Source of the DNA: Acidobacteriota bacterium
GTDB lineage: Bacteria > Acidobacteriota > Thermoanaerobaculia > Multivoradales > J023
NCBI GenBank assembly: GCA_029263315.1
Contig: JAJCXR010000003.1
Location: 64,615 to 128,614 of the forward strand
Reading direction: 5' to 3'
DNA length: 64,000 bases
Positions 3,001 to 62,012 of this stretch are shown here, one piece after another. Position 1 is the stretch's first letter. Each line of letters begins with the position of its first letter. The position numbers were made by a program, and so were the translations under genes. Under the pieces are notes generated by a model. It had not been told where the DNA came from. It saw nothing but the letters and a program-made list of their open reading frames with translations, and searched no databases.

Positions 3001-3730
3001 CCCGCAGGCGGGCCAAGACCTGCTCGGCGCTGAGGGAGAGCTCGATGCGTCGTTGCTCGAGCAGGAACTCGCCCTTGTCCACCTCCACGTGGTCGATCTG
3101 TACCTCGAATCGCCGCTGGCGCTCACCCCGGTTGCGAAACATCACCAGATTGTGCTCACCGTCCGGGAAGTGGGCAATATGAAACACCGGACGCTCGACC
3201 CGGATCTGGCGCAGCCGCAAACAGCGCCGCTGGAGGCTGCTGAGGTCGATTTCCACCAGCCCCCAGGGGATGTGAGCCAACGGCACCCGCTCATCGGGAT
3301 CTTGCCGCTCGGGTCCATGTAAGGTCAAACCCCAAACCTGGACGGTGAACGGCAGCAGCTGGATCTCGAGGTCGTCGATCTCGACGCGGCGGTCGAAGTA
3401 TTGTCCGACGTAGTGACTCACCAGGCGGCCGATGCCGTCGCGGGCCCAATCCGTATCGAGCAACCATTGGGACACGGAGAGCAAGGAAATGAGCAGGATG
3501 AGGCTCCAGATCAGGGGCCGCAGCAGCCAGCGCCGAAAGCGTCCCGGACGGCGCTTCCCAGGACCGTCGAAATCGTCCGGCCCGTCACCCTCCGGGAATT
3601 CCTCGGAAGACCCATGCTCAGAAGACCCGTGCTCGGAAGACCCGTGCTCGGAAGACCCAGGGTCGTCGACGACCGAGTCGTCGGCGGGCCCTACGGCATC
3701 CTGGAGCTCCGGCTGTGCCCCTTCGGCCAA
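1..3730 (-). CDS. TamB/AsmA-family translocation-and-assembly-module-like giant protein. The N-terminus and start are in the window; the C-terminus runs off the left edge of the window, so more than 1240 aa are visible.
   Basis: It is absent from the ORF track because there is no in-window stop. My own minus-strand translation from 3730 downward is open to position 1. The N-terminal signal anchor reads RFRRWLLRPLIWSLILLISLLSVSQWLL. The rest is a long beta-rich repetitive body (…VEIDDLEIQLLPF…, …GTADLVLLGNLAKPILYGEVDLLAGGELVYNG…) typical of TamB/AsmA. A putative TTG start lies 1 nt after the nadK stop; the start is uncertain. Confidence 0.5.
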   Translation of the reverse strand, partial: MAEGAQPELQDAVGPADDSVVDDPGSSEHGSSEHGSSEHGSSEEFPEGDGPDDFDGPGKRRPGRFRRWLLRPLIWSLILLISLLSVSQWLLDTDWARDGIGRLVSHYVGQYFDRRVEIDDLEIQLLPFTVQVWGLTLHGPERQDPDERVPLAHIPWGLVEIDLSSLQRRCLRLRQIRVERPVFHIAHFPDGEHNLVMFRNRGERQRRFEVQIDHVEVDKGEFLLEQRRIELSLSAEQVLARLRGLGDLRVGGQLIAQQAVIRLPRAKPFTVSVSARGEIQRGQVRIEEASIVGPDFRSELSGACEWSRLDREKRNCRFLATGQGEGDVLAALDYHHDLSGTFHYDGTIDWRPGAFGWRSRVTAPSLVAWGRRIRQLEGGLVADRYGTRFSLDKASYGGGTVRGEVVYSHEEEGRPTAIDLDFERVQLDQLLADQKIPVTGAASRVHGKLLYRFDLGESQRGQGRAEVAVTVDPQQSGIPLAGAFPLRIEDGVIHSESIGLMSKRQSLLAGGSYDLNRQRGQFDFEIASDDLAELSPLLPLPSDEPALWLPTAGKGTMQGTLFLEPGETSSQVRLRLEEVITDSLSARLAQGVFHLDEQGLSDLRLELVDGESALLMEGDIPFDASSENPADLRLVAAGWPLAQIKPWLPFEVPMGGDISGRLQLAYDAADSRGTLRAELSPATMEVGSWVSQPIPFDRIATRLVWDASGVRFESFNWQAPSGSLSGQGTYDWDGGMDLDLRSSALELSASPIVDFLPRADLAGEVSAELRLRGKLEEPSLALTLRAETLRLEGRRLSQRPSLLKMRWHRGEADFEGRLLEMVEVRGGGRLRAGATDLRLAVEGQDVRGLFELLFAEPPDVGGDFRGQLSIVGQGAEEPEIRLGLETLRLDLKDPGGGEHHLESQALIELRWTSQGIETPSAHLLEADTGSEFRFSGGVGFGTDAPLALILQSRFDAKWLGFFDLGFDLAGDLSVAGNVAGTMASPSLEGSGEIHRGVLRLGEGFPYPLENLTGQLIFLPQQVILQDLEGTLADGSVEISGRTRFGEDEAPLDYRIQATARNLTVRYPEGWVLRGDTDLTLRSTPSGHMIDGRASLDSMEYLDDIRVDFEKLMRGFLEQQRFEVAPTDSLLSTVQLNVDLDGSLAVRNNLANLRGTADLVLLGNLAKPILYGEVDLLAGGELVYNGLDYALQRGRILFANPYALNPELDLVATTRVRDFDVNLAVDGTFERLETRFTSEPPLPA
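3606..3665 (-). repeat. In-frame 15-bp tandem repeat, 4 copies of gaagacccgtgctcg, inside the TamB-like N-terminus. It encodes (GSSEH)n.
   Basis: Direct reading gives gaagacccatgctca / gaagacccgtgctcg / gaagacccgtgctcg / gaagacccagggtcg. The minus-strand translation is HGSSEHGSSEHGSSE. The antisense frame gives the SEDPC repeat seen in spurious ORF 3432..4292. Confidence 0.8.
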
Positions 3731-10606: not shown

Positions 10607-11374
10607 ATGGATATTCAAAACGCAGTTGCCCTCGTCACCGGCGGTGCTTCCGGCCTCGGCGAAGCCACCGTCCGCCGCCTCGTCGCCGCCGGCGCCAAGG
10701 CGGTCATCGTCGACCTCAACGACGAGCGGGGCCAGGCCCTGGCCGAAGAGCTCGGCGAGGGTGTCGTCTACGTCAAGACCAACGTCGCCGATCCGGCCGC
10801 CGTCGATGCTGCCGTCGAGGCGGCCCGTGAGCTCGGTGAGCTGCGCATCGCGGTGAGCTGTGCTGGCATCGGCCCTGCCGCCAAGACCGTCGCCCGCGAC
10901 GGCTCGCCCCATGATTTCGATCTCTACCGCAAGGTGATCGAGGTCAACTTGCTGGGCACCTTCAACGTCCTCAGCCGCTGCGCCGCCGCCATGTCGCGGA
11001 ATGAGCCCAACGCCGACGGCGAACGGGGGGTGGTGATCAACACCGCCTCCGTCGCCGCCATCGAAGGGCAAATCGGCCAGGTGGCCTATTCGTCGTCCAA
11101 GGGCGGCGTCATCGGCATGACCCTGCCCGCCGCCCGTGACCTCACGTCGGTCGGTGTGCGGGTCATGACCATCGCCCCCGGTACCTTCGACACACCCCTC
11201 TTGGCCGGCCTACCCGAAAAGGTCCGCCACTCCTTGGCGGCGGGCATTCCCTTCCCCAAGCGCCTCGGCTTGCCAGAGGAGTACGCCCAGTTGGTGCAGT
11301 CGATCGTCGAAAATGCCTACCTGAACGGTGAGGTGATCCGTTTGGATGGGGCGTTGCGCATGGCACCGCGGTAG
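10607..11374 (+). CDS. Short-chain dehydrogenase/reductase (SDR), 3-hydroxyacyl-CoA dehydrogenase type-2-like
   Basis: TGGASGLG Rossmann motif, NTAS, and YSSSK (YxxxK catalytic). It lies 4 nt after hbd. Confidence 0.8.
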
Positions 11375-11389
11375 GTCCAACTAGCCAAA

Positions 11390-11530
11390 TGCAGGCTCCC
11401 TCTACCGTCCCCGGGAGAGGGCGGGGGGTGAGGGCTCCGATGCAGGCTCCCTCTACCGTCCCCGGGAGAGGGCGGGGGGTGAGGGCTCCGATGCAGGCTC
11501 CCTCTCCCGTCCCCGGGAGAGGGCGGGGGG
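11390..11530. repeat. 51-bp tandem repeat (2.7 copies); each unit holds an imperfect palindrome (ccctctaccg-tcc-ccgggagaggg). REP-like / stacked hairpins.
   Basis: Direct reading: gcaggctccctctaccgtccccgggagagggcggggggtgagggctccgat appears twice, plus a degenerate third copy. Confidence 0.85.
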
Positions 11531-11651
11531 GAGTGACGCTCAGCTGAGACCGACTGCGCTGTCGCCGCTGACGGCATAGTCGAGCCGCGTCTTCTCAAGG
11601 GGGACTTGGTATACTGAACGGGCAAAGTCATCCACCCGAGGCTCACTGCGC

Positions 11652-11826
11652 CAGGAGCAACGGGTCTTGAGACCTGGGAGGTGGCCGATGATATTGCCAG
11701 CCCCCTCACACCTGCGAAGCGGCTTGGCCGATGGCGGTCGGACAAGCCATCTGGGGCTCTGTTGCAGCGAGCGTCACGCCGCAGACGTGGATGCATCGGC
11801 GCTCGAATACCAAGGTATTTCGGGAA
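11652..11826 (+). other. Copy 1 of a duplicated intergenic element (roughly 170 nt, the 3' 65 nt near-identical to copy 2 at 49.9-50.1 kb). Candidate structured RNA or shared regulatory region.
   Basis: ggggctctgttgcagcgagcgtCacGcCgcaGaCgtggatgcatcggCgctcGaatacc aligns to 50027-50090. Upstream it aligns more weakly (tcttgagacctggg vs tcttgtgggcctggg). It contains the GATGCATC palindrome and a gctc/gagc stem. Confidence 0.5.
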
Positions 11827-11957
11827 GGATGTACTCAGGTTCTACCCAACGTTTCTGGGCAGTCTCAGGCGGCTCAGGAATTGTGGCTGGATATCGGATA
11901 GTACTCTTTATGAGGCGCTTACCGTATCATAAAACGGATACTTTGACCCACCAAAAC

Positions 11958-11974
11958 TTGACTTACAAAGTCAA
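11958..11974. promoter_or_regulatory. Perfect 6-bp inverted repeat TTGACTtacaaAGTCAA, 27 nt upstream of the peroxiredoxin start. Candidate operator in an AT-rich promoter region.
   Basis: Direct reading. It sits in a locally low-GC segment (11.85-12.0 kb). Confidence 0.4.
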
Positions 11975-12000
11975 CCAAACAACAACTAGGGGTTACAATC

Positions 12001-12651
12001 ATGTCCATTCGCATTGACGACATCGCTCCAGACTTCACTGTCAATTCCACCGCTGGCACGATCCAACTTCACGATTGGATCGGTGATAGCTATGCCATCC
12101 TCTTTTCGCATCCAAAGGATTTTACGCCGGTATGTACGACTGAATTCGGTGCCGTTGCTCAGCTGGTTCCTGAATTTGCCAAACGCAATACCAAAGTCAT
12201 GGGCGTATCTGTGGACAACGTTGAAGAGCACATAAAATGGAAGCGCGACATCGAAGCCTTCGCCGGTGCTCCTGCCGACTTTCCGATTATCGACGATACT
12301 TCGTTGCATGTATCCAAACTGTACGACATGCTGCCAGCGGGTGCCTATCTGACCGAGAATCGTACGCCTGTCGACAGCGCCACTGTGCGGACTGTATTCA
12401 TCATCGGTCCTGACAAGAAGGTTCGCCTAACCATGTCATATCCGATGTCAGTAGGCCGCAACTTCGCGGAGATTCTGCGTGCCTTGGATGCAATCCAGCT
12501 CACCGATGGTGCACCTGTTGCTACGCCCGCCAACTGGGTTCCCGGTCAGGACGTGATAGTCGGGCTGGGCCTGAACGATGAGCAGGCGAAAGAAAAGTTC
12601 GGAGATATCAATATTAAGCTGCCCTATTTGCGATTTACAAAAAGCCCCTGA
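12001..12651 (+). CDS. 1-Cys peroxiredoxin (Prx6-type thiol peroxidase)
   Basis: FSHPKDFTPVCTTE peroxidatic Cys motif; full-length Prx6-like fold of 216 aa. GC is noticeably lower than the surrounding DNA. Confidence 0.85.
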   Translation: MSIRIDDIAPDFTVNSTAGTIQLHDWIGDSYAILFSHPKDFTPVCTTEFGAVAQLVPEFAKRNTKVMGVSVDNVEEHIKWKRDIEAFAGAPADFPIIDDTSLHVSKLYDMLPAGAYLTENRTPVDSATVRTVFIIGPDKKVRLTMSYPMSVGRNFAEILRALDAIQLTDGAPVATPANWVPGQDVIVGLGLNDEQAKEKFGDINIKLPYLRFTKSP

Positions 12652-12738
12652 AAGTTAGAAACAGAACAAGTACAGGGAGCTGTCACGTTGCCCTTCTGAT
12701 GTGAAACCGAGAGACCTCAGCAGGTCGCTGGCTCGCCG

Positions 12739-14502
12739 TCAGGATGCTGGACGGCGAGCACTTTCACTCCAGCCGCGGCGTTCGCCAATCTGCCCGAGGT
12801 TGCGCAGCAGGCGGCCGGTGACCTCGCGGGCCGCCGCCCGAACCTTGCGAGAGGTAGGCTGGTCGGTGATGCGGACGCAGAAGGCCAGTTGGGCCTTGGG
12901 CAGGGGACCGATGCCGATGTAGTTGACGTGAAATCCGTACCTGGGATGGCTGGCGGTGCCGGTTTTCATGGCGACCGGGAATCCGGCGGGCGCCATATTG
13001 CGGGCCGTGCCGCGCTCGGCGACCGCCACCATGGAATCCAAGATGGGCTGAATCTGGCGCTCTTCGATGACCGGACGATCGGACGACGGCTGCAAGGGGC
13101 GGGGATGCAAACCCAAGCGTCCGTCCTGGGAAACCAGCAATCTCGGCCGGGGCATGCGGCCATCGTTGGCCATGACGGCGGCCATCAGAGCGCCATGCAG
13201 AGGTGTCATCTCCGTCGCCTCGAGGCCTATGGACAAATCCGCCAGCTGACGCAGGTCTCCCCGGGACTGGAGGATCCGGGCGCCGGGAAAGGGTCCCCAG
13301 TCGCCGCCGAAACCAAAGGCCCGAAGCTCATCCAGCATGGCGCGACGCCCGACCCGCACCGCAAGATTGGCGAAGGCGACGTTGCAGCTGACCGCCATGG
13401 CCCGATCGAGGCCGCGCAGCCGACCGGCGATATGCGGACAATAAAGCCTTTCGCCGTCATAACTCTGATGGCCGCGGCATTCCATGACGGCGAGCAGGGA
13501 GTCCGGGTCCAGCCCGGCTCGTAAAGTCGCTGCAGTGGTGATTAACTTCGACACCGACGCCGGCTCGCGGAATTGCTCGAAAGCCGCGGTGCCACCCTGG
13601 CGATAGGTCCTGCGATCACTGACCGCCGCCAAGACCTCGCCACTGTGGGGATCGATGATGACAATGCTGCCGCGGTGGGTGCGTCCAAAAGCACGGAATG
13701 CGGCCGCACTGAGCTCCAAATCCAGGCTCGAACGCAGGGAGCTGGCCTCAGGATGCTCCGCCATGGCGACCTCCACCGCCCGCGGCACCCACTCCGGACG
13801 AATTCCCTCCAACAACCGCAACTCGCGGCCGTCATAGGTGGCGATGGCTTCGCCCTGACGATCCCGCAACACTTGTCCCGCAAGGTCTGGAGATCGGCTG
13901 GCGAAGCCCTGTAACCGATGTAGTAGGCGGCTGGCGGTCGGCGGTGGTACCTGGGACGCCCCGAGGGCTTCGACCTCGATCATTTGGCCGGTCTCGATGG
14001 CCAGGGCCACCTGCACCGCGGCCACCGCCGGACGGCCCAAGGCCTCGGCCAAGACGGTCAGATGCTTGGCGTGCTCGAGCTCACCGCGCTCGAAGGCGGC
14101 ACGAACCATGAGAGGCAGCGGCAGCTCCGTCCCATCCGGGCCAGCCTCGATAGGTCCCTCGACGGCTGAGCTTGGCGCCGCCGAAGAGACGCCGAGGGCA
14201 GCCTGCAGGGTGCCGACTTGGGCATCGTCGACGACGCCGACATCACCCTCTGCCAGGAGGTGGCGGGCGGCGTCCCACTGGCCGTCCACCAGCAGGCTCC
14301 CCACCTGCAATAAAAGCGCTTGCTGCTCGACCCGCTGAATCTCGGTCGACAACAATCCCACCATGAGCACTGGCAAGCTCCACAGACCCAAACGGAGCAC
14401 GTACCGACGCCAAATAGGACGGCGCACGGTCTGTTCTTGGGCCGGTGTCTGCTGGGGTGCCGTCCGATGCCGCTCTTCGCGACCCGCCACGGAACGTGTC
14501 AC
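12739..14502 (-). CDS. Penicillin-binding protein, transpeptidase (FtsI/PBP2-like) with N-terminal membrane anchor
   Basis: SVSK (SxxK), SCN (SxN) and KTGT triad motifs in the correct order. N-terminal transmembrane segment LRLGLWSLPVLMVGLL. Confidence 0.7.
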   Translation of the reverse strand: MTRSVAGREERHRTAPQQTPAQEQTVRRPIWRRYVLRLGLWSLPVLMVGLLSTEIQRVEQQALLLQVGSLLVDGQWDAARHLLAEGDVGVVDDAQVGTLQAALGVSSAAPSSAVEGPIEAGPDGTELPLPLMVRAAFERGELEHAKHLTVLAEALGRPAVAAVQVALAIETGQMIEVEALGASQVPPPTASRLLHRLQGFASRSPDLAGQVLRDRQGEAIATYDGRELRLLEGIRPEWVPRAVEVAMAEHPEASSLRSSLDLELSAAAFRAFGRTHRGSIVIIDPHSGEVLAAVSDRRTYRQGGTAAFEQFREPASVSKLITTAATLRAGLDPDSLLAVMECRGHQSYDGERLYCPHIAGRLRGLDRAMAVSCNVAFANLAVRVGRRAMLDELRAFGFGGDWGPFPGARILQSRGDLRQLADLSIGLEATEMTPLHGALMAAVMANDGRMPRPRLLVSQDGRLGLHPRPLQPSSDRPVIEERQIQPILDSMVAVAERGTARNMAPAGFPVAMKTGTASHPRYGFHVNYIGIGPLPKAQLAFCVRITDQPTSRKVRAAAREVTGRLLRNLGQIGERRGWSESARRPAS

Positions 14503-37296: not shown

Positions 37297-38534
37297 TAGA
37301 GGCCGCCGCTCTTGGTGTAGAGCTGCTGGAAGAGCTCGATCAGATGATCGTCCGGCGAACGACCATGTCGGCGTCGATAGAAGGCGGAGAAGATATCTGA
37401 GGCCGAAGCGCCGGCCGCCATGAGCGCCGCCGAGGCGGTGTCGTCCTGCCCCGAGGGCTCGGCCTCCGGTAGCTGCAATCGCACCACCACCGCATTGGGC
37501 AATAACCGACGCACGCGGCTCGCCACCTCGGGATCGGGGCTGTCGAGGGGAATGGTCAGACGCAACCATCCAGCGGTCGCCAAGGTATCGGCCTGCGCTT
37601 CGATCTGTTGCAAAGTGGCCAGGTGATCGATCAGCGGTGTCGCCCCTTGGTAGGGAACCGTCTCGACCCGCGCCGCGCCGCCGGGCTCCACTTCGACGAC
37701 GACAAAGCTCTTGGTTTCCTCGGCTTCGCCAAAATCGAGCTGTAGAGCCGAGCCGGCGTAGTACGCCTCGGTGGCCACGGCGTCGAGCCGCTGGGGCCTA
37801 TGGACATGCCCCATGGCGACATATTGGGCGCTGCTGGGCAAGGTCGCCGGTGCCAGTGCCCAATCCTCCCCCACATGGACCCGGCGCTCGGAATTGGACA
37901 GGGCGCAGCCGCCGACGAAGGCATGGGCAGTGAGCAGGTTGACCGTATCGGGACGGAAAGTGGTGGCCAACTGGGCGATGAGCAGCCCCATGCGATCGGG
38001 GTAGGACTTGCTGCGCGCAAGGTCCTCGTCGTCGAAGCGCTCCAGGGCGCTCACCAGTTGGCGTGGACCGGCGAAGGGTATCGCCGCAATCGTCGCCCGC
38101 TGCCCGTTCTTGGCCAGGAGATCCAGCACGCCGCCGCGGGCGGAAGCGCCGGGCCGGGACGCTCCCGGCCGGGCCGCGCCAGGCCGGGCCACTCCCGGCC
38201 GGGCCGCGCCAGGCCGGGCCACCACATGGCAGTCGACCAACTCGCTGAGCAGACCCCAGGCTGCCAGGCGAGCCGGGCTGTCGTGGTTGCCGGCGATCAC
38301 CAGGCTGGGGACCCCGGCCTGTCCCACCGCCTTGAAAAATCGAAATACTAGACTTTCCGCCTCCGCCGAAGGCGAGGGCGTGTCGAAGACGTCACCGCTG
38401 TGGATCAGCAGATCGATGTCGTGACGGCGCACGAAGTCCGTCAGGTGATCGAGCACCCGCCCGAGCTCGTCGAGGCGTTTCTTGCCTTTCCACACCTTGC
38501 CGGCGTGCCAATCGCTGGTGTGAAGAATGCGCAT
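37296..38534 (-). CDS. sbcD: Exonuclease SbcD (Mre11-family calcineurin-like phosphoesterase)
   Basis: MRILHTSDWHAG…GDVFD…GNHD…HAF…GHVH motifs. Contains an (ARPGA)n insertion from a tandem DNA repeat. Confidence 0.85.
   Translation of the reverse strand: MRILHTSDWHAGKVWKGKKRLDELGRVLDHLTDFVRRHDIDLLIHSGDVFDTPSPSAEAESLVFRFFKAVGQAGVPSLVIAGNHDSPARLAAWGLLSELVDCHVVARPGAARPGVARPGAARPGASRPGASARGGVLDLLAKNGQRATIAAIPFAGPRQLVSALERFDDEDLARSKSYPDRMGLLIAQLATTFRPDTVNLLTAHAFVGGCALSNSERRVHVGEDWALAPATLPSSAQYVAMGHVHRPQRLDAVATEAYYAGSALQLDFGEAEETKSFVVVEVEPGGAARVETVPYQGATPLIDHLATLQQIEAQADTLATAGWLRLTIPLDSPDPEVASRVRRLLPNAVVVRLQLPEAEPSGQDDTASAALMAAGASASDIFSAFYRRRHGRSPDDHLIELFQQLYTKSGGL
38147..38222 (-). repeat. In-frame 15/30-bp tandem repeat inside sbcD, encoding ARPGAARPGVARPGAARPGASRPGAS
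   Basis: cgctcccggccgggccgcgccaggccgggc / cactcccggccgggccgcgccaggccgggc, with degenerate flanking copies. Confidence 0.8.
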
Positions 38535-38985: not shown

Positions 38986-39065
38986 GCTCGCTCGAAGGGG
39001 GGCCCGCCAAGGGCCTCCCGCGGGCACCGATTTCGTAAAGCGGGACGGGAACTAGCTTGTGTCCA
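38986..39065. repeat. Copy A of a roughly 80-bp direct repeat (…ccaagggcctcccgcgggcaccgatttcgtaaagcgggacgggaactagcttg…)
   Basis: Aligns to 39203-39292, which is copy B and overlaps the 3' end of the sigma-54 activator gene. Confidence 0.6.
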
Positions 39066-39202: not shown

Positions 39203-39292
39203 CGCTCGCCCCTTGGCGGGCCCCCCTTGCTCGCTCCAAGGGGCCTCCGTTGGCACCGATTCTGGTAAATCTGTACGGGAACTAGCTTGGAA
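39203..39292. repeat. Copy B of the roughly 80-bp direct repeat. It contains an internal inverted repeat gccccttgg…ccaaggggc and spans the activator stop codon.
   Basis: Direct reading. Confidence 0.6.
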
Positions 39293-43416: not shown

Positions 43417-43529
43417 GCATGGAACCTTTCTGGAGGTTTACCGCAGGGACCGGAGCCCGGCCGCAGTGATGGGCCTGATCAAGTGACGGGTCGGATCCAG
43501 TGACAGGTCGGATCAAGTGACGGGGCGGA

Positions 43530-44804
43530 TTACGTAACGACCTCGCGCTTGCGGAAGCGCTCCGAATCCCAGGCTCGGGAGGTCAGCACTTGTCGCAACA
43601 CCTGCACCGCATCCCACACATCGACGTGGCTGGTGTAGAGGGGCCCCAAACCAAACCGCATGATATCCGGCTCACGAAAGTCCCCCACCACGCCCCGGTC
43701 GATCAAGGCTTGCATGATCGAGTAGGCCTGGGGATGCCGAAAGCTCACTTGGCTTCCCCGCTGCCGCTCCCCCTGTGGGCAGGCGACTTCCAAGTCAGCA
43801 TCCTCGCACTCTTGCTCCACCAGAGCGATCATCGCGTCGCCGAGGGAGACGCCCTTGCGCCACACCATCTCGAGATCCAACCCATCGAAGAGGTCGAGGG
43901 CGGCATCGAGGGCGGCGAGGCTGAGAATGGGCGGGGTGCCGCACCGGAAGCGCCCGATACCGGAGGCCGGTCGGTAGGTCGGCTCGAAGGCAAATGGGGA
44001 ACGGTGCCCTAACCAACCGGTCAACGGCGAGCGGGCCCGGTGCTGCCAGCGGCGGGCAACATAGAGGAAGGCCGGCGCCCCGGGTCCGCCGTTGAGAAAT
44101 TTGTAGCCACATCCGACCGCCAGATCCACGTAGCAGCCGTTGAGGTCGACGGGCAGGGCACCGGTGCTGTGGGACAGGTCCCAAAGCACCAAGGCTCCCC
44201 GCTCGTGGGCCGCCCGGGTCATGGCGGCCATGTCGTGGAGCTGGCCCGAACGGTAGTCGACATGGGTCAGCACCAGGACCGCCACGTCTTCGTCCAAGGC
44301 CAGGGTCAGCTTGGACCGCTCCACCGTCCGCATACGGAGATCTTTGCGCAGCCCGGCCAATCCCTGTGCCATGTACAAGTCGGTCGGAAATTGCCGGTCC
44401 TCCGACAGGATCACCGAACGGCCCGGCCGCAGCTCGACGGCCGCCGAGATCAGCTTGAACAAGTTGACGGAGGTGGAATCGGCGACCACCACCTCATCGC
44501 CCTCGGCACCGATGAGACGAGCGATCTTGGCGCCCACGGTTCGTGGCCAGTCGATCCAGCGGTGGACGTTCCACGACCGGACCAAGCTCTCTCCCCACTC
44601 CTGATCGATGACCCGCAACAAACGCTCGCGACTCTTTTTGGCCAACGGACCCAAGGAGTTGCCGTCGAAATAGAGCAATCCAGGCGGCAGGAGAAACTTC
44701 GCCCGGGTGCGCAGCAACGGATCGTGGCGATCCTCCTCCTCCATCAGCTCGCGGCTCAGGAGGTAGCCCGAGGCGATGGCTTCGCTGAAGCTATCGGGTT
44801 CCAT
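43530..44804 (-). CDS. kynU: Kynureninase (PLP-dependent, aminotransferase class V fold)
   Basis: LDGNSLG…DLSHS…K. Overall length 425 aa. Start at MEPDSF (44804). Confidence 0.75.
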
Positions 44805-45674: not shown

Positions 45675-48600
45675 ATGTATCCGACTCCAAGTGCTCGTCG
45701 TCTTGGCTCTTCCCTAGGAGCCACCCTCAGCGCTCTGGTCCTCGGGCTTGCGGCCTACGGCCTGGCAGGTACTACGCCTGCATTTGCCGCCGGCCCCGGC
45801 TCGGTTGCGCCGACTACCCCAGTCTCCACTCCTGCGGCCGCCGCCGCGACATCGAGCAATACGCCGATGCCGTCTGATCTGACATCGACCTCGAGCTCCA
45901 ACACTTCGTCCTGGGGCGGACACGGTGGTGGTAGCCATGGAAGCAGCGGCAACCACGGTGGTGGTGGCGGCAACCACGGTGGTGGTGGCGGCAACCACGG
46001 CGGTGGTGGCGGCAACCACGGCGGTGGTGGCGGTAACCACGGTGGTGGCGGACACGGCGGTGGTGGCGGACACGGCGGTGGTGGCGGTCACGGCGGTGGC
46101 GGTGGTGGCGGTGGTCACGGCGGTGGCGGTGGTCACGGCGGTGGCGGTGGTCACGGCGGTGGCGGTGGTCACGGCGGTGGAGGCGACGGCGGTGGCTGTC
46201 CTGGTGGCCATGGAGGCGGCGGCGAAGATGACGACAACTGTCCGCGTACCCCCGGCTATTGGAAAAACCACACCGATGTTTGGCCGGTCGACGGCTTGAC
46301 CGTCGGCGGAATCTCCTACGACCAAGCCGATCTGCTCGCCTTCCTCAACTATGGCGGCTCCGACATGTCCATGAAGCTCGCACGCCACCTCACGGCGACG
46401 ATGCTCAATCTGGCCAACGGAACGGGAACCTCGATCCAGTCCGTCGTCGACGACGCCAATGACCTCTTGCAAAACAACCCACCGGGTTGCAATCCCCGCG
46501 GCAGCGTCAAGGCCATGGCCCGAGATCTCAAGAACCTCTTGGACGATTACAACAACTTCGGCGACTGCGGCGACTCCGGCGGCGGCGACGATGATGACGA
46601 CGATGACGACGATGACGACGACGACGATGACGACGATGATGACGACGACGATGACGACGATGACGACGGGACCTGCCCCCGTTCCCCGGGCTACTGGAAG
46701 AATCATCTCAGTGCCTGGCCGGTCGATAGCCTGACCCTCGGCGGCATCCCTTACGACCAAGCCGACCTGCTCATCTTCCTCCACTACGGTGGCCCCGACA
46801 TGTCCATGAAGCTGGCGCGGCATCTCACCGCGGCGATGCTCAATCTGGCCAATGGCGCGGGCACCTCGGTGCAGAGCGTCGTCGACGACGCCAATGACTT
46901 CTTGGCCATCATGCCGCCGGGTAGCCAACCGAGCGGCATGGACAAGACCTTGGCCAAGGACCTCAAGAATCTGCTGGACGATTACAACAACGGCGACGAC
47001 TGCGGCAGTGGCGATCCCGAGCCCCCGCCACCATGCTCCGCCGAGGCGCCCCTCGACCTCGTCTTCGTGCTCGACCTCTCCGGCAGCATGACTTCCAGCT
47101 TCCCGGCGGTCGGCAATCGCCTGGCCGCGGCCCAGACGGCGCTGCTGGCAATCAACGACCAGTTGCAAGCCCGGGGTGACGGCAGCCGGGCCGCCCTGGT
47201 GACCTTCGCAGGCTTCTGGACGGTCGAAGAAAACCTCAACCAAGCAGTGATCCTGCAGTCCGGCTTCACCTCGGATCTAGCCTCCTTGGAGCCGTTGATC
47301 TCGAGCTTCGATCCGATCGATATTCCGGCCGACGCCACGACACCCACGGCCCTCGCCCTCGAAGGCACCTTGAGCCTGTTGCTCGGCGAGTCGAACCCGA
47401 CCCACAAGCGGGCCATGGTCTTGGTCACCGACGGCGTGCCCAACATCGACCTCATGGGCCGCGGTGCCCTCGAGTACGAGTTGGAGGAGATCCAAGACAT
47501 CGACATCGAAGACGGCTTGGGCGGTTTCCTCAGCTGGCCGGCAGTATCACTGCTCGGCGGTTTCAACCCCGCCTACGGCACCTTTGATGGCCAAACCCTG
47601 AGCGACTCGATGCTGCAATTGGAGATCATGAAGTCCATGGTGCCCGACCTGCGCATTTTCGGTATCGCCTTGCAGGGTGACGGCATTGATCTAGGCACTT
47701 TCAATGAAGGTCTGCTGCGCTACAGCGCCGCCATCTCCGGTGGCGTCTCCTACAGCGCCAGCAACTTCAGCCAGCTCGAGATGATCCTCGACACCCTCGA
47801 CCTGGACTACGATTGCAGCGGCGATCCGCCGGTCGACCCCACCGAGCCTTCGTCGATCGGCGACCGGGTGTGGCAGGACGACAACGGCGACGGTGTACAA
47901 GACCCCGGCGAAGCCGGATTGAACGGTGTCACGGTGACCCTGCTGGACGACCAAAACATGGTGCTGCTGACCACCGTCACCACCGGCGACGGCGAATACC
48001 TCTTCGCCGGTCTGCCGGCCGGGGACTTCACCGTCGTCATCGACCCTGCCACCTTGCCGGCCGGCATCGATCAGGCGACCTATGACCTCGACGGCACCGA
48101 TACCTTGGATCAAGCCAGCGTCAGCTTGGCAGCCGGCCAGGACCTCGACACGGTGGACTTCGGCTATCGCGAGTTTGTGCCGCCGCCGTTGATCTGCGCC
48201 GTCGACACCTTCGACGGCCCTGAGCTCGATCCCGACTGGGCCTTCCGTTTCCTCGGCAACGCCTTCGAAGGCGGCGCCGAGATCGTCAACGGCGAGCTGT
48301 ACCTCAGCGGCAACGGCACCGAGCTTTACCATGGCGACGACAACGCTGGCTTCGTCTTCAAGACGGTGTCCGGTGATTTCCGCGTCGAGACCACCATCAC
48401 CGGTTTCCCGGTGGATATCGGTGGCCTGGTGCGCAAGGCCGGTATCCACGTACGGACGGCCTGGGACGATCCGCTGGCGCCACGGGTGATGGTCAATTTC
48501 ATCCCCCACCTGCCCAGCCCCGAGACCACGGCGTTGCAATTCGACGCCCGCATCTCCCAAGGGGCCACGGCGGTGGAGTTGGCCAGCAACGTGCTCGATG

Positions 48601-49661: not shown

Positions 49662-49701
49662 GGCTAGGTTGAGCGATCGAGCCCGATCGCTGACAGCACA
49701 A

Positions 49702-49729
49702 AGCCCCCGCCTCGGCGGGGGCTTTTTTG
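49702..49729 (+). terminator. Rho-independent terminator (aagcccccgcctcggcgggggcTTTTTTGTTG)
   Basis: Perfect GC-rich hairpin plus T-run, 40 nt after the stop of the giant secreted-protein gene. Confidence 0.85.
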
Positions 49730-49899
49730 TTGTGGGGCTCGAGTGAGCACTGCGGCCTACGATGCTTCTCCCCGCGGTTCGGCGGAAAGCAAACGCCCCG
49801 GCCCCGTTCGTCGACCCGAAGAGCTATTCAGATCGGGTGGCCATCGGCAAGAAGCAGCATCGTCTCCCCGTGGTATAATTCTACCCACAATTAATTCTA

Positions 49900-50095
49900 A
49901 AGATCTCGTCTGAGTCATCTTGTGGGCCTGGGCCTGAAGCTTCCCTTAGTGCACCTTTCCGGAAGTAGGGTGAGCTATCGAGAGCCCCGAGGCCCGCGTC
50001 CGCAAGGCTTGCGAGTGAGGCATCGTGGGGCTCTGTTGCAGCGAGCGTAACCCGCGGAGGTGGATGCATCGGGGCTCAAAATACCAGCGTCTTTT
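49900..50095 (+). other. Copy 2 of the duplicated intergenic element (see 11652..11826), ending 50 nt before the start of the giant membrane-protein gene
   Basis: catcgtggggctctgttgcagcgagcgtaacccgcggaggtggatgcatcggggctcaaaataccag, followed by gcgtcttttttt. Confidence 0.5.
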
Positions 50096-50145
50096 TTTGA
50101 AAAGGTGTACTTGGGGAGAGGGCCCGAGCCTCGGGAGGAGTCGTC

Positions 50146-53100
50146 ATGCTGCGCAAACCGGTATTCTGGGTGTCTTTTGTCGCCCTCTCCATCGTCGCCT
50201 GGTGGTTCACCCTAAGCACCTTCGAGCAGGCCTACCCGGTGGTCGATCTAGAGCTGACGATGAACCGCAGCGGCGCCCTGGCCAAGGCCGAGGACCTGGC
50301 CTCCCGTCATGGTTGGGGACCACCAGGGGCGACACAGGCAGTCGCCTTCGAGCGGGACGAGACCGTGCAGGTCTTCGTCGAGCTCGAGGCCGGCGGCAAA
50401 GCCGCCTTTCAGGAGATGCTGGCGGCAGATCTCTATGCTCCCTATAGCTGGAAGGTCCGCCGATTCCAGCCCGGCCATACGACGCAGGGCGAGGTCCGTT
50501 TCACTCCGGACGGCGAGCCCTACGGCTTTCGCATCAAGCTGCCAGAAGACGCTCCGGGAGCCAGTTTGGAACCGGCGGCGGCCCGTCGCTTGGCCGAGGA
50601 TGCCGCCGCCGGTGACTGGCGCGTCCACTTCGCCGACTTCGAGCTCATCGAAGGCTCGCAGGAAATGCGTCCCGGCGGACGCACCGACCACACGTTTGTC
50701 TACCAACGTCAGGCACAAAGCCTGGGCGAAGCTCGCTACCGACTCCGCTTGGTGGTCAGCGGCGACCAACTCAGCGAGCTCAGCCACAGCGTCGCCATTC
50801 CGGAGACCTTCCATCGCCGCTTGGCGCAGCTGCGGGCCGGCAATCAGGCCCTCTCCTCCGCCGGCAGGATCGTCATGCTGGTGCTGCTGCTCGGCGGCGG
50901 CTGTCTGACGGGCCTCCTCTTCCTTCTCCGACGACGGGCCCTGTTGTGGCGACAGGCATTGGTTTGGGGGGCAACGATCGGCCTGCTGCAGCTGATGGCC
51001 GGGCTCAATCGATGGCCCCTTTGGTGGATGGAGTACGACACCGCCGTCGGAGCCAAGAGTTTTGTCATCGAAACGATCTTCAACCTGTTTTCAGAGTGCG
51101 TTTGGCTCACCTTGGGCACGGCGTTCGTTTTCATGGCAGCCGAGGGCTTGACCCGCTATGCCCTGCCCGATCAGATTCAGCTCTGGCGTTCTGCGTCGGC
51201 GGCGGCAAGCCCACAGATCCTCGGCCGAACCGCAGCGGCCTACCTGCTGGTTGGCCCCTACTGTGCCTACAAAGTGGCTTTCTTTCTCTTCACTTCCCAA
51301 AACCTCGGTTGGTGGTCACCGGCCTCCCACCTTTCGGACCCCAACATCCTCGCCACGTGGTTACCGTGGCTCAACCCCATCGCCGCAGCCCTGCGGGCTG
51401 GATTCGCCGAGGAATGCCTGTTCCGGGCCCTGCCGTTGGCCATCGCCACGCTGCTCGGGCGGCGCTTCGGACAACCGCGCCTGTGGATCGGCGCCACCTT
51501 GATACTGCAAGCCGTGATCTTCGGCGCCTCTCACGCCAACTATCCCAACCTGCCAGCCCATGCGCGATTGGTGGAGCTGATCCTGCCTTCCATTCTCTAT
51601 GGCTTGATCTACTTGCGCTTCGGCCTGTTGCCGGGAATCCTCCTGCACTTCGCCTTCGATGTCCTGGCCTTTGGCCTGCCGGTGCTCGTCTCCACCGCCC
51701 CCGGCGCGGCGATCCACCTGACAATGCTGGCATTGATCACCCTCCTCCCCATGGCAGTGGTACTGCTGGCGCGCTGGCGTCAAGGTCGCTGGGGCGAGGT
51801 CGACGGGACCCTCCTCAACGGCTCATGGGTACCCCCACCTGCCACTGCGGAGACGCCAGGACGATGGGCACCGAGCCGCCAACTGGACCTGCCAGGCTAC
51901 CGCTGGCTCTATGTAGCGGCGGCTGCGGGGGCCGCTCTGTGGCTGGCGACGAGTCGCTTCGAGTCCGATGCTCCACGCCTCCAGGTCGATCGGAGCACAG
52001 CCATCACGGCCGCCCGGCAAGAGGCCCAGAACCTGGGCTGGGAGCTGAGCCCCCATGCCACCGTGCTCGGCCAAGTGCGCTTCGAGCTCGATGATGGCCA
52101 CCGCTTTGTCTGGCAGCAAGGGGGACGCCAACTCTATGATTCATTGCTGGGCAGCTACCTGCGTCCGCCACGTTGGCACTTCCGTTTTGTCAACTTCAGC
52201 GGCGAGGTTACGGGGCGGGCCGAAGAGCACCAGATATGGATCGATGGGAGGGGCCAAGCCTTTCAGCACTGGCATCGACTACCGGAGGACCGGGACGGCG
52301 CCAACCTCGAGGCCGGGAACGCCAGAACCTTGGCCCTGGCAGCGCTGGCCAGCCGCTACGGCCTGGGGCCAGACCAGCGGATCGAGATATCCGCCCTTCC
52401 GTCACAACGCCCCTCCCGCCGGGATTGGCAATTCACCTTCGAAGACCCCACCGTGCTGCCCGAGACCCCCGGCAAAGCGCTGGCGACCGTCCTCATCGCG
52501 GGCCACGAGGTGATCAGCTCTTTCCGTCAAATCCAACCACCGGAATCGTGGCGCCGGGCCGAAAGGGAACATGCTGCGATCGGCGAAGTGCTGCACCAGG
52601 GGAGCCGACTGTGCTTTTTCTTGGTCTGCCTCGGCGGACTACTGGCGGCGGTGTACCGCTGGAGCCAGCGACGGCTCGCCGGTCGAGGGACCATCCTTTC
52701 CTTGACCCTTCTCAGCCTGCTGGCGGTTGTCATCCTGATCGACCTCTGGCCCCTTCTCCAGGCCGAGCTATCCACCTCCCGGGCTCCCGGCCTGCAGATG
52801 ACAGCTAAGCTCAAGGGCATCCTACCGCCCGCCATCGGCATCCTGGTCGCCGTGGCCCTGCAGATCGGCTTCACCCTGCGCTGGCCTCCGTTGCGCACCC
52901 CGAAAAACCTTCGAGCCGCGTTGCTCCCGGGCTTAGCCCTGGGCACTGTCTGGGCCGGCCTGGCGGCGCTCGTTCTGCGACTGAGGCCGTCTTCGCTGCC
53001 CATCTGGCCGGACTTCACCGTCGCCGGCAGCGCGCTACCTTGGCTGGGCGCCAGCCTGCATCCGCTGGCAACTTTTTTCATCGTCGCTTTGCCAACAGTC

Positions 53101-61015: not shown

Positions 61016-61999
61016 ATGAGCCAGAAAACAACCTCGAAGCAAACTTCTGGACAGTCGACGCCAGACGACGCCTCCGCCATCGATTTGCACAACCTCTCAG
61101 AACCTCTGTTGCAACGATTGCAGCAGCTAGAAGCCTTGAATGGGTACGACCAATGTTTCCACCGCGCCGTGCCCAACAACTACGTCTATATGCTGATCAA
61201 TGCCAGCTATCCACTGGAAGACTACTTGGCCGGCATTGCCACCAACACGGCACCACTCAATCGTGCCAATGGCCGTGTCTATCGATACTGTGTGGACAAG
61301 GTTAAGGAGCTACCACGGCAGGCTGTGCTCGGAAACGATGAGCTGATTCAATGGTTGGGCGGATGGAAAAAAACGACAACCACCTCGGTCAATCTCAAAG
61401 GGGTGGCCTTTGCCGAGAAGGTTTTTGCCTTTCTCGCAGACGCAGGCCTCGACGCCCGACGCCGCTGGCGAACAGAGGCTCCTGAGATGCATGACATGTT
61501 CACGCGGCAGATCCCCCACAAGATCGAGCATCTTCTGCGACTCAATCTGAGCATCCCCCATGACCTGGTGACCCAGTCCCTACAACGGCTGATGGATGAG
61601 GTATTCGGGGCTTCCGATACATTCTCATTGATCGAACGGGTTGAGGTCGCCAAACCCAACCTCAGCAATGACACCTCAGTGACGAATTACCCAACCATCA
61701 TCCTTTACCTCGTCGTTGATGCTAACGAGCCGGCGCGCCGTGACGAAGTCGATCAGCTGTTGCGTCTACTTCATCCGTGGGCTGCCGGTTTTGAGCACGG
61801 CCTCGGGGCGGAGTCGGACTTCGCCGACCTATGGTACCCATTCCTCACAGTTACCCAAGGGTACAAGCTTTGGAAACGGTACTTGCGGGTGGTGGGATTG
61901 CTCGACGAAGTCTACGACCGGGACTTCAACTATGCCTATTTGAGAGGCAGGCCAACACTTAGGAACTTTCCGCAAGTCCTATCCCAGTACCGGCCTTAG
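61016..61999 (+). CDS. Hypothetical protein (327 aa), no recognisable domain, low-GC gene inside the RiPP-like locus
   Basis: Long ORF with SD ggaga. GC clearly below the genome average. Converges on the radical SAM gene with a 13-bp gap. Confidence 0.5.
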   Translation: MSQKTTSKQTSGQSTPDDASAIDLHNLSEPLLQRLQQLEALNGYDQCFHRAVPNNYVYMLINASYPLEDYLAGIATNTAPLNRANGRVYRYCVDKVKELPRQAVLGNDELIQWLGGWKKTTTTSVNLKGVAFAEKVFAFLADAGLDARRRWRTEAPEMHDMFTRQIPHKIEHLLRLNLSIPHDLVTQSLQRLMDEVFGASDTFSLIERVEVAKPNLSNDTSVTNYPTIILYLVVDANEPARRDEVDQLLRLLHPWAAGFEHGLGAESDFADLWYPFLTVTQGYKLWKRYLRVVGLLDEVYDRDFNYAYLRGRPTLRNFPQVLSQYRP

Positions 62000-62012
62000 T
62001 ACACCTATCCTC

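Follow-up and report, generated by a model that had tools for sequence, protein, structure and literature searches.

A two-copy intergenic repeat of an uncultured acidobacterium-like lineage, palindromic upstream of a CPBP gene and partial beside a peroxiredoxin gene

Two intergenic loci with a shared segment

The stretch of DNA analysed here (64 kb, hereafter the window) belongs to an uncultured acidobacterium-like, Thermoanaerobaculia-like lineage, and its own proteins were found only on Logan metagenome contigs and one NCBI contig. Two of its intergenic regions share a direct repeat. Copy A is flanked by the stop codons of two convergent genes, encoding a short-chain dehydrogenase (SDR; stop at 11374) and a penicillin-binding protein (PBP; stop at 12739), and it shares their 1.36-kb gap with a 51-nt unit repeated three times in tandem and a gene for a 1-Cys peroxiredoxin. 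Copy B lies between a strong terminator (49700-49725) and the start codon (50146) of a gene for a 1136-aa protein, homologs of which are named CPBP intramembrane protease in Thermoanaerobaculales, Vicinamibacteria and Acidobacteriota MAGs (the nearest at 57% identity). The features of the two loci are as follows.

11389-11541, no strand assigned: tandem repeat of 51 nt in three copies, left flank of copy A (repeat family D5; GC 0.745)
11607-11615, plus strand: TGGTATACT, box resembling an extended −10, 137 nt before core A, found by motif scan; putative promoter
11745-11839, plus strand: copy A of the repeat, matching copy B in its apex and right arm (blastn E=3e-15; 96.3 bits with covariance model R1)
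11753-11774, plus strand: exact 22-nt block GGGGCTCTGTTGCAGCGAGCGT in copy A (0 mismatches)
11787-11804, plus strand: block GTGGATGCATCGGCGCTC in copy A, which includes the palindrome GATGCATC
11905-12738, plus strand: peroxiredoxin cassette of horizontal origin, including an upstream region of its own, to the right of copy A (from identity, GC and DNA homology)
49871-49908, plus strand: TGGTATAAT, the native CPBP promoter, with the conserved first part of the 5′ UTR, outside the repeat (from alignment with the L015 ortholog)
49911-50143, plus strand: full predicted RNA hairpin of the CPBP 5′ UTR, inner palindrome plus outer stem (from folding)
49942-50004, minus strand: left arm of copy B, which repeats the right arm and tail in inverted, diverged form (from the R1 match, self reverse-complement and arm duplex)
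50018-50117, plus strand: copy B of the repeat, comprising the apex (22-mer, 50027-50048) and the right arm (50054-50117) (blastn; 99.3 bits with R1)

An initial annotation had described a ~170-nt element at 11652-11826 and 49900-50095. A direct repeat is indeed present exactly twice in the window, but only ~95 nt of it are homologous: blastn aligned 11745-11835 with 50018-50111 (95 nt, 80% identity, E=3e-15), and we take the copies as 11745-11839 and 50018-50117. The earlier coordinates had thus included ~95 nt of unrelated sequence and missed ~15-20 nt of the 3′ tail. Borders of the homology were sharp, with unalignable flanks, and the ~65% identity previously noted for the 5′ part (~130 nt) proved to be at chance level, shuffled sequences aligning as well in 169 of 1000 cases globally (score 6 versus 3.8±2.0) and 205 of 1000 locally (score 11 versus 9.4±1.7). 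The inner 61 columns of the alignment contain 7 differing positions (~89% identity), including the exact 22-nt block GGGGCTCTGTTGCAGCGAGCGT (plus strand, 11753-11774 in A and 50027-50048 in B) and the exact 13-nt block GTGGATGCATCGGSGCTC (at 11787 and 50060), and the differences across the core are compatible with uniform divergence of ~12%. No third GGGGCTCTGTTGCAGCGAGCGT site was found in the 64-kb window at up to 3 mismatches (0 expected by chance). The covariance model that had been proposed as a check could be built from both copies as a sequence-only model (R1); it recovered the copies at 96-99 bits (A, 96.3; B, 99.3), and no other match in the window exceeded 12 bits.

As first described, both copies are oriented alike, on the plus strand and upstream of plus-strand genes. 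They lie 38.3 kb apart, with ~190 nt from the end of core A to the peroxiredoxin ATG (12001) and ~60 nt from the end of core B to the CPBP ATG (50146), and have similar GC contents (0.61 for A, 0.585 for B). Neither strand of the element (~95-176 nt) carries a conserved ORF or peptide, and a coding function was ruled out by two 1-nt indels between the copies, which shift the frame on both strands. A further motif common to the region downstream of A and the region upstream of B, TTCTACCCA, was not significant.

Other repeats were seen in the window. A 49-nt segment occurs twice (39011-39059 and 39241-39289; 71% identical, 230 nt apart, with GGCACCGATT...GGGAACTAGCTTG) in the intergenic region beside a gene for an FHA-domain sigma-54 activator, with a TATACAAT-like box between the copies. 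Long runs of 15-21-nt repeats (GGTGGTGGCGGCAACCAC...) at 45912-46214 encode a Gly/His-rich low-complexity stretch in the N-terminal part of a 1352-aa VWA/SdrD-like protein, internal duplications of 84-300 nt were present at 46143/46578 and 47172-47472/49005-49305, and a repeat finder reported short tandem arrays with 15-17-nt periods at 38146-38220, 3602-3661 and 43464-43530.

Palindrome and predicted hairpin of copy B

Copy B is part of an imperfect palindrome of ~176 nt (49942-50117), with two ~60-nt arms that are ~70% complementary and an apex that carries the 22-mer. The left arm was matched by R1 on the minus strand (49946-50004; inverted and partial, model positions 37-97, E=0.02), and the self reverse-complement score of the region was 35, versus 13-16±3.4 in shuffles (0 of 500 as good), ranking it among the highest 1% when every 260-nt window of the 64 kb was scored. 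The same arm is complementary to the right part of copy A as well (1 of 1000 shuffles as good). As RNA, 49936-50124 was predicted to fold into a single long hairpin (−85.3 kcal/mol, z=-3.7; for 49886-50150, z=-2.9) with the 22-mer at its largely unpaired apex. The arm duplex alone reached −71.5 kcal/mol, versus −34.0±4.4 in shuffles, and the sequence just beyond the arms was predicted to add an outer stem (−30.4 versus −21.3±3.7; 13 of 1000 shuffles as good).

The predicted structure favours the sense strand, both for the full hairpin (plus −113.1 versus minus −85.9 kcal/mol) and for 49936-50124 (plus −85.3 versus minus −67.9 kcal/mol), and the alignment of the two arms holds 16 plus-strand G·U pairs versus 6 A·C (P = 0.05). 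Together, the G·U excess and the strand asymmetry are suggestive of the existence of B as a sense RNA. Specific occlusion of the ribosome-binding site by the hairpin was rejected, the Shine-Dalgarno sequence having an unpaired probability of 0.27, versus 0.28±0.16 when the 5′ arm was shuffled. No plausible end of B carries a direct repeat that could represent a target-site duplication (left flank ...GAAGCT, right flank GAGGGC...).

Copy A matches only the apex and right arm of B and has no significant left arm. Its predicted hairpin was unremarkable (z=-1.1), shuffles matched its arms in 29 of 1000 alignments and 116 of 1000 duplexes, and G·U bias was absent (counts of 9 versus 9). Elsewhere in the window, GATAGGTGTACTAAGG at 61994-62009 (minus strand) reproduces the outer arm end of B with one mismatch (~0.01 expected) and sits in a 13-nt gap between two convergent genes; this end-like motif (13 nt) may be the trace of a third copy or a coincidence.

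The segment that the two copies share gave no sign of a conserved fold of its own. On either strand, the core folded no better than dinucleotide shuffles (z 0.0 to +0.7), RNAalifold returned only a weak consensus for the two copies (98 columns, −16.6 kcal/mol) whose only double change fell in the tail, where the alignment is poor, and no conserved secondary structure with covariation emerged from these two sequences. The earlier suggestion that differences between the copies are partly compensatory therefore found no statistical support: the impression arose from one pair, the status of which depends on gap placement, and the other differences shorten stems. In copy B, the CGAGCG/CGCTCG stem of copy A is only shorter. 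No Rfam family matched anywhere in the window at the gathering score, and at E≤10 nothing fell on the core, the only matches being a chance snoRNA and terminator-type matches to the terminator of the upstream gene (49700-49725), such that the Rfam comparison foreseen by the initial annotation yielded no relevant family. The best explanation for the high similarity of A and B is common descent of a copied segment rather than a conserved structured RNA.

Flanking DNA and distribution of the repeat

At the A locus, the peroxiredoxin gene was acquired horizontally, as a low-GC cassette that includes a regulatory region of its own. The protein is 88-94% identical in amino acids to proteins of Marinobacter, Acidithiobacillus, Pseudomonas and others (gammaproteobacterial, proteobacterial and other), and GC is 0.52 in the gene and 0.45 upstream of it, versus 0.66-0.67 in the neighbouring genes. 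DNA homology with the loci of other hosts extends over 11940-12653 and includes ~60-95 nt upstream of the gene, and this upstream region, which aligns with L017 and L018, carries an inverted motif, ACTTTGAC...CAAAGT. No terminator was found between core A and the peroxiredoxin gene. On the other side of A, the 51-nt tandem array begins right after the SDR stop, with units that range from perfect to 82% and each contain a CCCTCT...AGAGGG palindrome; two Logan contigs (L001 and L003) begin within it (11389-11541).

Relatives differ at this site. In the closest available relative (PBP 82% identical), PBP and SDR are separated by 63 nt, with no copy A, tandem repeat or peroxiredoxin cassette; a relative at 69% has a different gene (413 aa) between PBP and SDR; and in a relative at 76%, the 159 nt that follow PBP yielded no core. 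Since relatives lack the A segment and the adjoining cassette is foreign, copy A is within or beside a recent insertion in a variable hotspot, and the imported promoter region separates it from the peroxiredoxin start. Presence or absence of A among relatives is polymorphic, but this comparison is confounded by co-insertion with the cassette.

At the B locus, an extended −10 consensus, TGGTATAAT (49871-49879), and the next ~30 nt are kept upstream of the L015 ortholog, the two upstream regions aligning as TGATAG-ACT...ACCAACAATTGGTCTAAAGAACTTCG. Because the box is conserved in L015, TGGTATAAT would be the native CPBP promoter, which places copy B in the CPBP 5′ UTR. The conservation of this promoter and the first ~30 nt of the 5′ UTR (ACCnACAATTnnTCTAAAGAnCT; 49871-49908, positions 803-845 of L015) despite 57% protein identity was an observation in its own right, and may reflect an operator or a 5′-end signal. 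Beyond the promoter, the L015 leader has no significant structure, and its best local alignments with the element, in both orientations, scored at the shuffle mean, which ruled it out as a diverged homolog. A sigma-54 promoter (TGGCAC-N5-TTGCW, GG-N10-GC) was also considered and rejected, the GG-to-GC spacing in CTGGGGCTCTGTTGCA being one base short.

No core was found in L015, L016, L035 or L036. Larger collections were scanned with a two-block pattern (GTTGCAGCGAGC, 10-36 nt, GGATGCATC, both blocks exact; slightly looser for IMG/VR), which returned 10 matches among 185,579 GTDB species genomes, 13 in JGI metagenomes and 1 in IMG/VR. All were attributable to chance: none had the flanking conserved bases, and most fell in coding sequence. 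As far as exact-block scans tell, the core in its present form appears confined to the source lineage. Within that lineage, Logan contigs pass unbroken through both cores, which would argue against further near-identical copies. The large ORFs of the window encode no transposase or integrase domain, and no insertion sequence (IS) with matching ends was found.

Candidate origins and roles of the repeat

We tentatively interpret A and B, with somewhat less than even confidence, as copies of a lineage-specific and putatively mobile intergenic palindromic repeat of the MITE/ERIC/Correia-like kind, co-transcribed at B and partial at A. Copy B would be the complete form, preceded by the ancestral promoter of the CPBP membrane-protease gene and situated inside that gene's 5′ UTR. 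From this position we infer that B is co-transcribed; on the mRNA it would fold into the long hairpin, which, by analogy with known elements, could alter mRNA processing, stability or translation. Copy A would be a half-copy (apex and right arm) that meets the acquired cassette within a variable hotspot flanked by two convergent core genes. Sharp borders, a palindromic B, a half-copy A, a restricted distribution and the lack of a shared RNA structure fit this repeat class better than a dedicated riboregulator, and the palindromic B and half-copy A point towards the repeat- or IS-derived class that the initial annotation had set against its own regulatory proposal.

Bacterial MITEs and similar repeat elements are known upstream of genes, with promoters or promoter-like boxes, and are cleaved or otherwise processed as mRNA hairpins (PMC10969869, PMC2649163, PMC3184786). 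Among them, the Correia elements of Neisseria (CREE/NEMIS) are, like the present element, small, non-coding and intergenic, with inverted arms and a position often just upstream of genes; they carry −10-like boxes near an end and are co-transcribed as long mRNA hairpins (PMC2649163, PMC10969869), features that are predicted for the element described here. Copy B resembles them in size class (~176 nt), palindromic form and 5′ UTR position. The differences are that there is no sequence similarity, that the TA target duplication of Correia elements was not found here, that the arms are ~60 nt and ~70% complementary rather than 26-nt terminal inverted repeats (TIRs), and that two copies are known, from 64 kb, versus more than 100 for Correia. 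In ERIC/IRU and RU-1/2/3 elements, too, the whole element is an imperfect palindrome (100-170 nt) located in transcribed intergenic regions, with full and partial copies (PMC3184786, PMC2229807). However, ERIC belongs to another phylum, has no sequence similarity to the present element and is conserved across genera, whereas the closest available relatives lack the present element. REPINs and REP doublets share with it the inverted pair of a repeated unit, the hairpin and the lineage specificity (PMC3116915), but REP units are 20-40 nt long, very abundant and linked to a RAYT transposase, and the window showed neither such a gene nor such abundance.

Several observations sit less comfortably with a MITE/ERIC-like element. 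Only two copies are known, within 64 kb, and Logan contigs are unbroken through both cores; the ends of B lack a target-site duplication; the window contains no transposase, integrase or IS with matching ends; the ~60-nt arms exceed typical TIRs; and A and B differ to very unequal extents in their left and right halves.

The promoter-like boxes, in addition, would be more natural if the repeat were part of a regulatory unit. Extended −10 boxes of the form TGGTATAMT occur only twice in the 64-kb window (both strands searched; 0.1 expected), on the same strand and at similar distances upstream of the cores (137 nt for A, 146 nt for B), and it is this coincidence that speaks most strongly for promoter, spacer and core forming one functional unit. 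The two loci could then be paralogous cis-regulatory leaders, each with an extended −10, a variable spacer of ~135-145 nt and a ~95-nt core in the 5′ UTR, through which a common factor (protein, sRNA or ligand) would co-regulate the peroxiredoxin and CPBP genes. We regard this as unlikely, although it accounts for cores that are oriented alike relative to the downstream gene, for the absence of a terminator from core A to the peroxiredoxin, and for 22-nt and 13-nt blocks that are exactly kept, the former at the largely unpaired hairpin apex of B. The box coincidence itself is weakened on both sides. The B box is older than the element, being kept in L015, so its distance to the core is an accident of position, and the A box, TGGTATACT, overlaps 8 nt (CTTGGTAT) that match, in inverted orientation, ATACCAAG at 11807-11814, the end of the core (inverted repeat I5). 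Moreover, the copies have no common structure (core z ~0, weak alifold consensus, no hairpin at A), the upstream region of the peroxiredoxin gene was imported with it and is conserved in unrelated hosts, and the core is missing from the orthologous CPBP leader of L015 and from every collection scanned. Rfam riboswitches and leaders likewise occupy 5′ UTRs and contain highly conserved sequence blocks, but the present element differs from them in having no Rfam match even at E≤10, no conserved structure or covariation and no phylogenetic conservation. The broader proposal of the initial annotation (an RNA leader, a small RNA or a promoter module) retains the position of B in the CPBP 5′ UTR, its strand-asymmetric predicted hairpin and the TGGTATAMT boxes, and loses shared structure, Rfam membership and homologs.

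A reading of comparably low probability is a one-off ectopic duplication, in which the SDR-PBP hotspot, while it acquired the peroxiredoxin cassette by illegitimate recombination, also received a single copy of ~100 nt from the CPBP leader (or from a third locus), leaving A as a non-functional remnant and the B hairpin as a local feature of its leader. Host-like and foreign DNA meet exactly at copy A, in a 1.3-kb segment that relatives lack, and the GC of A (0.61) is like that of B (0.585) and the host and unlike that of the cassette; the sharp borders of the homology and the count of only two copies would also be expected. A single copying event would, however, leave unexplained both the inverted copy of the segment inside B and the matching −10 box upstream of A, and the divergence of A and B (~11-20%) is large for an event no older than the separation from the relative whose PBP is 82% identical.

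The complementarity between the copies raises the improbable alternative that A is an independent small-RNA gene, transcribed from TGGTATACT, whose 3′ domain mimics the right arm of B and remodels the CPBP leader by pairing in trans with its left arm. A promoter-like box does lie upstream of A, and the predicted duplex of core A with the B left arm (−63.0 versus −47.3±5.1 kcal/mol; 1 of 500 shuffles as good) comes near the −72.7 of B's own arms; this complementarity nevertheless follows automatically from the homology of A and B, and so is not independent evidence. No terminator follows A, relatives and collections show no conservation, and pairing of the CPBP ribosome-binding site is independent of the left arm. 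Still less probable is a trans-acting pair in which an RNA through A from TGGTATACT would mimic the 3′ arm of the CPBP leader hairpin and compete for its 5′ arm as an 'arm decoy'; expression of the imported oxidative-stress gene would then be coupled to the native membrane protease. Finally, that these direct repeats, similarly oriented and 38.3 kb apart, are the attL and attR of a ~38-kb integrated island is refuted by gene content and synteny, the interval consisting of core genes (ABC transporter, PilT/PilC/PilS/PilR, SbcCD, sigma-54 activators and kynureninase) of even GC, with no integrase and with synteny in relatives that have no repeat, between copies that are only 80-89% identical.

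On balance, the sequence is new and its kind ordinary: this is a real, lineage-restricted, two-copy repeat with a putative function only. It opens no new class of regulator, and would be of interest only if the core were a functional RNA or the copies interacted. If the MITE/ERIC-like interpretation is right, the repeat would exemplify hairpin-forming repeats between the genes of a Thermoanaerobaculia-like acidobacterial lineage that has been poorly sampled and, by its placement in a 5′ UTR and at the edge of acquired DNA, would bear on how such repeats may reshape leaders and mark insertion hotspots.
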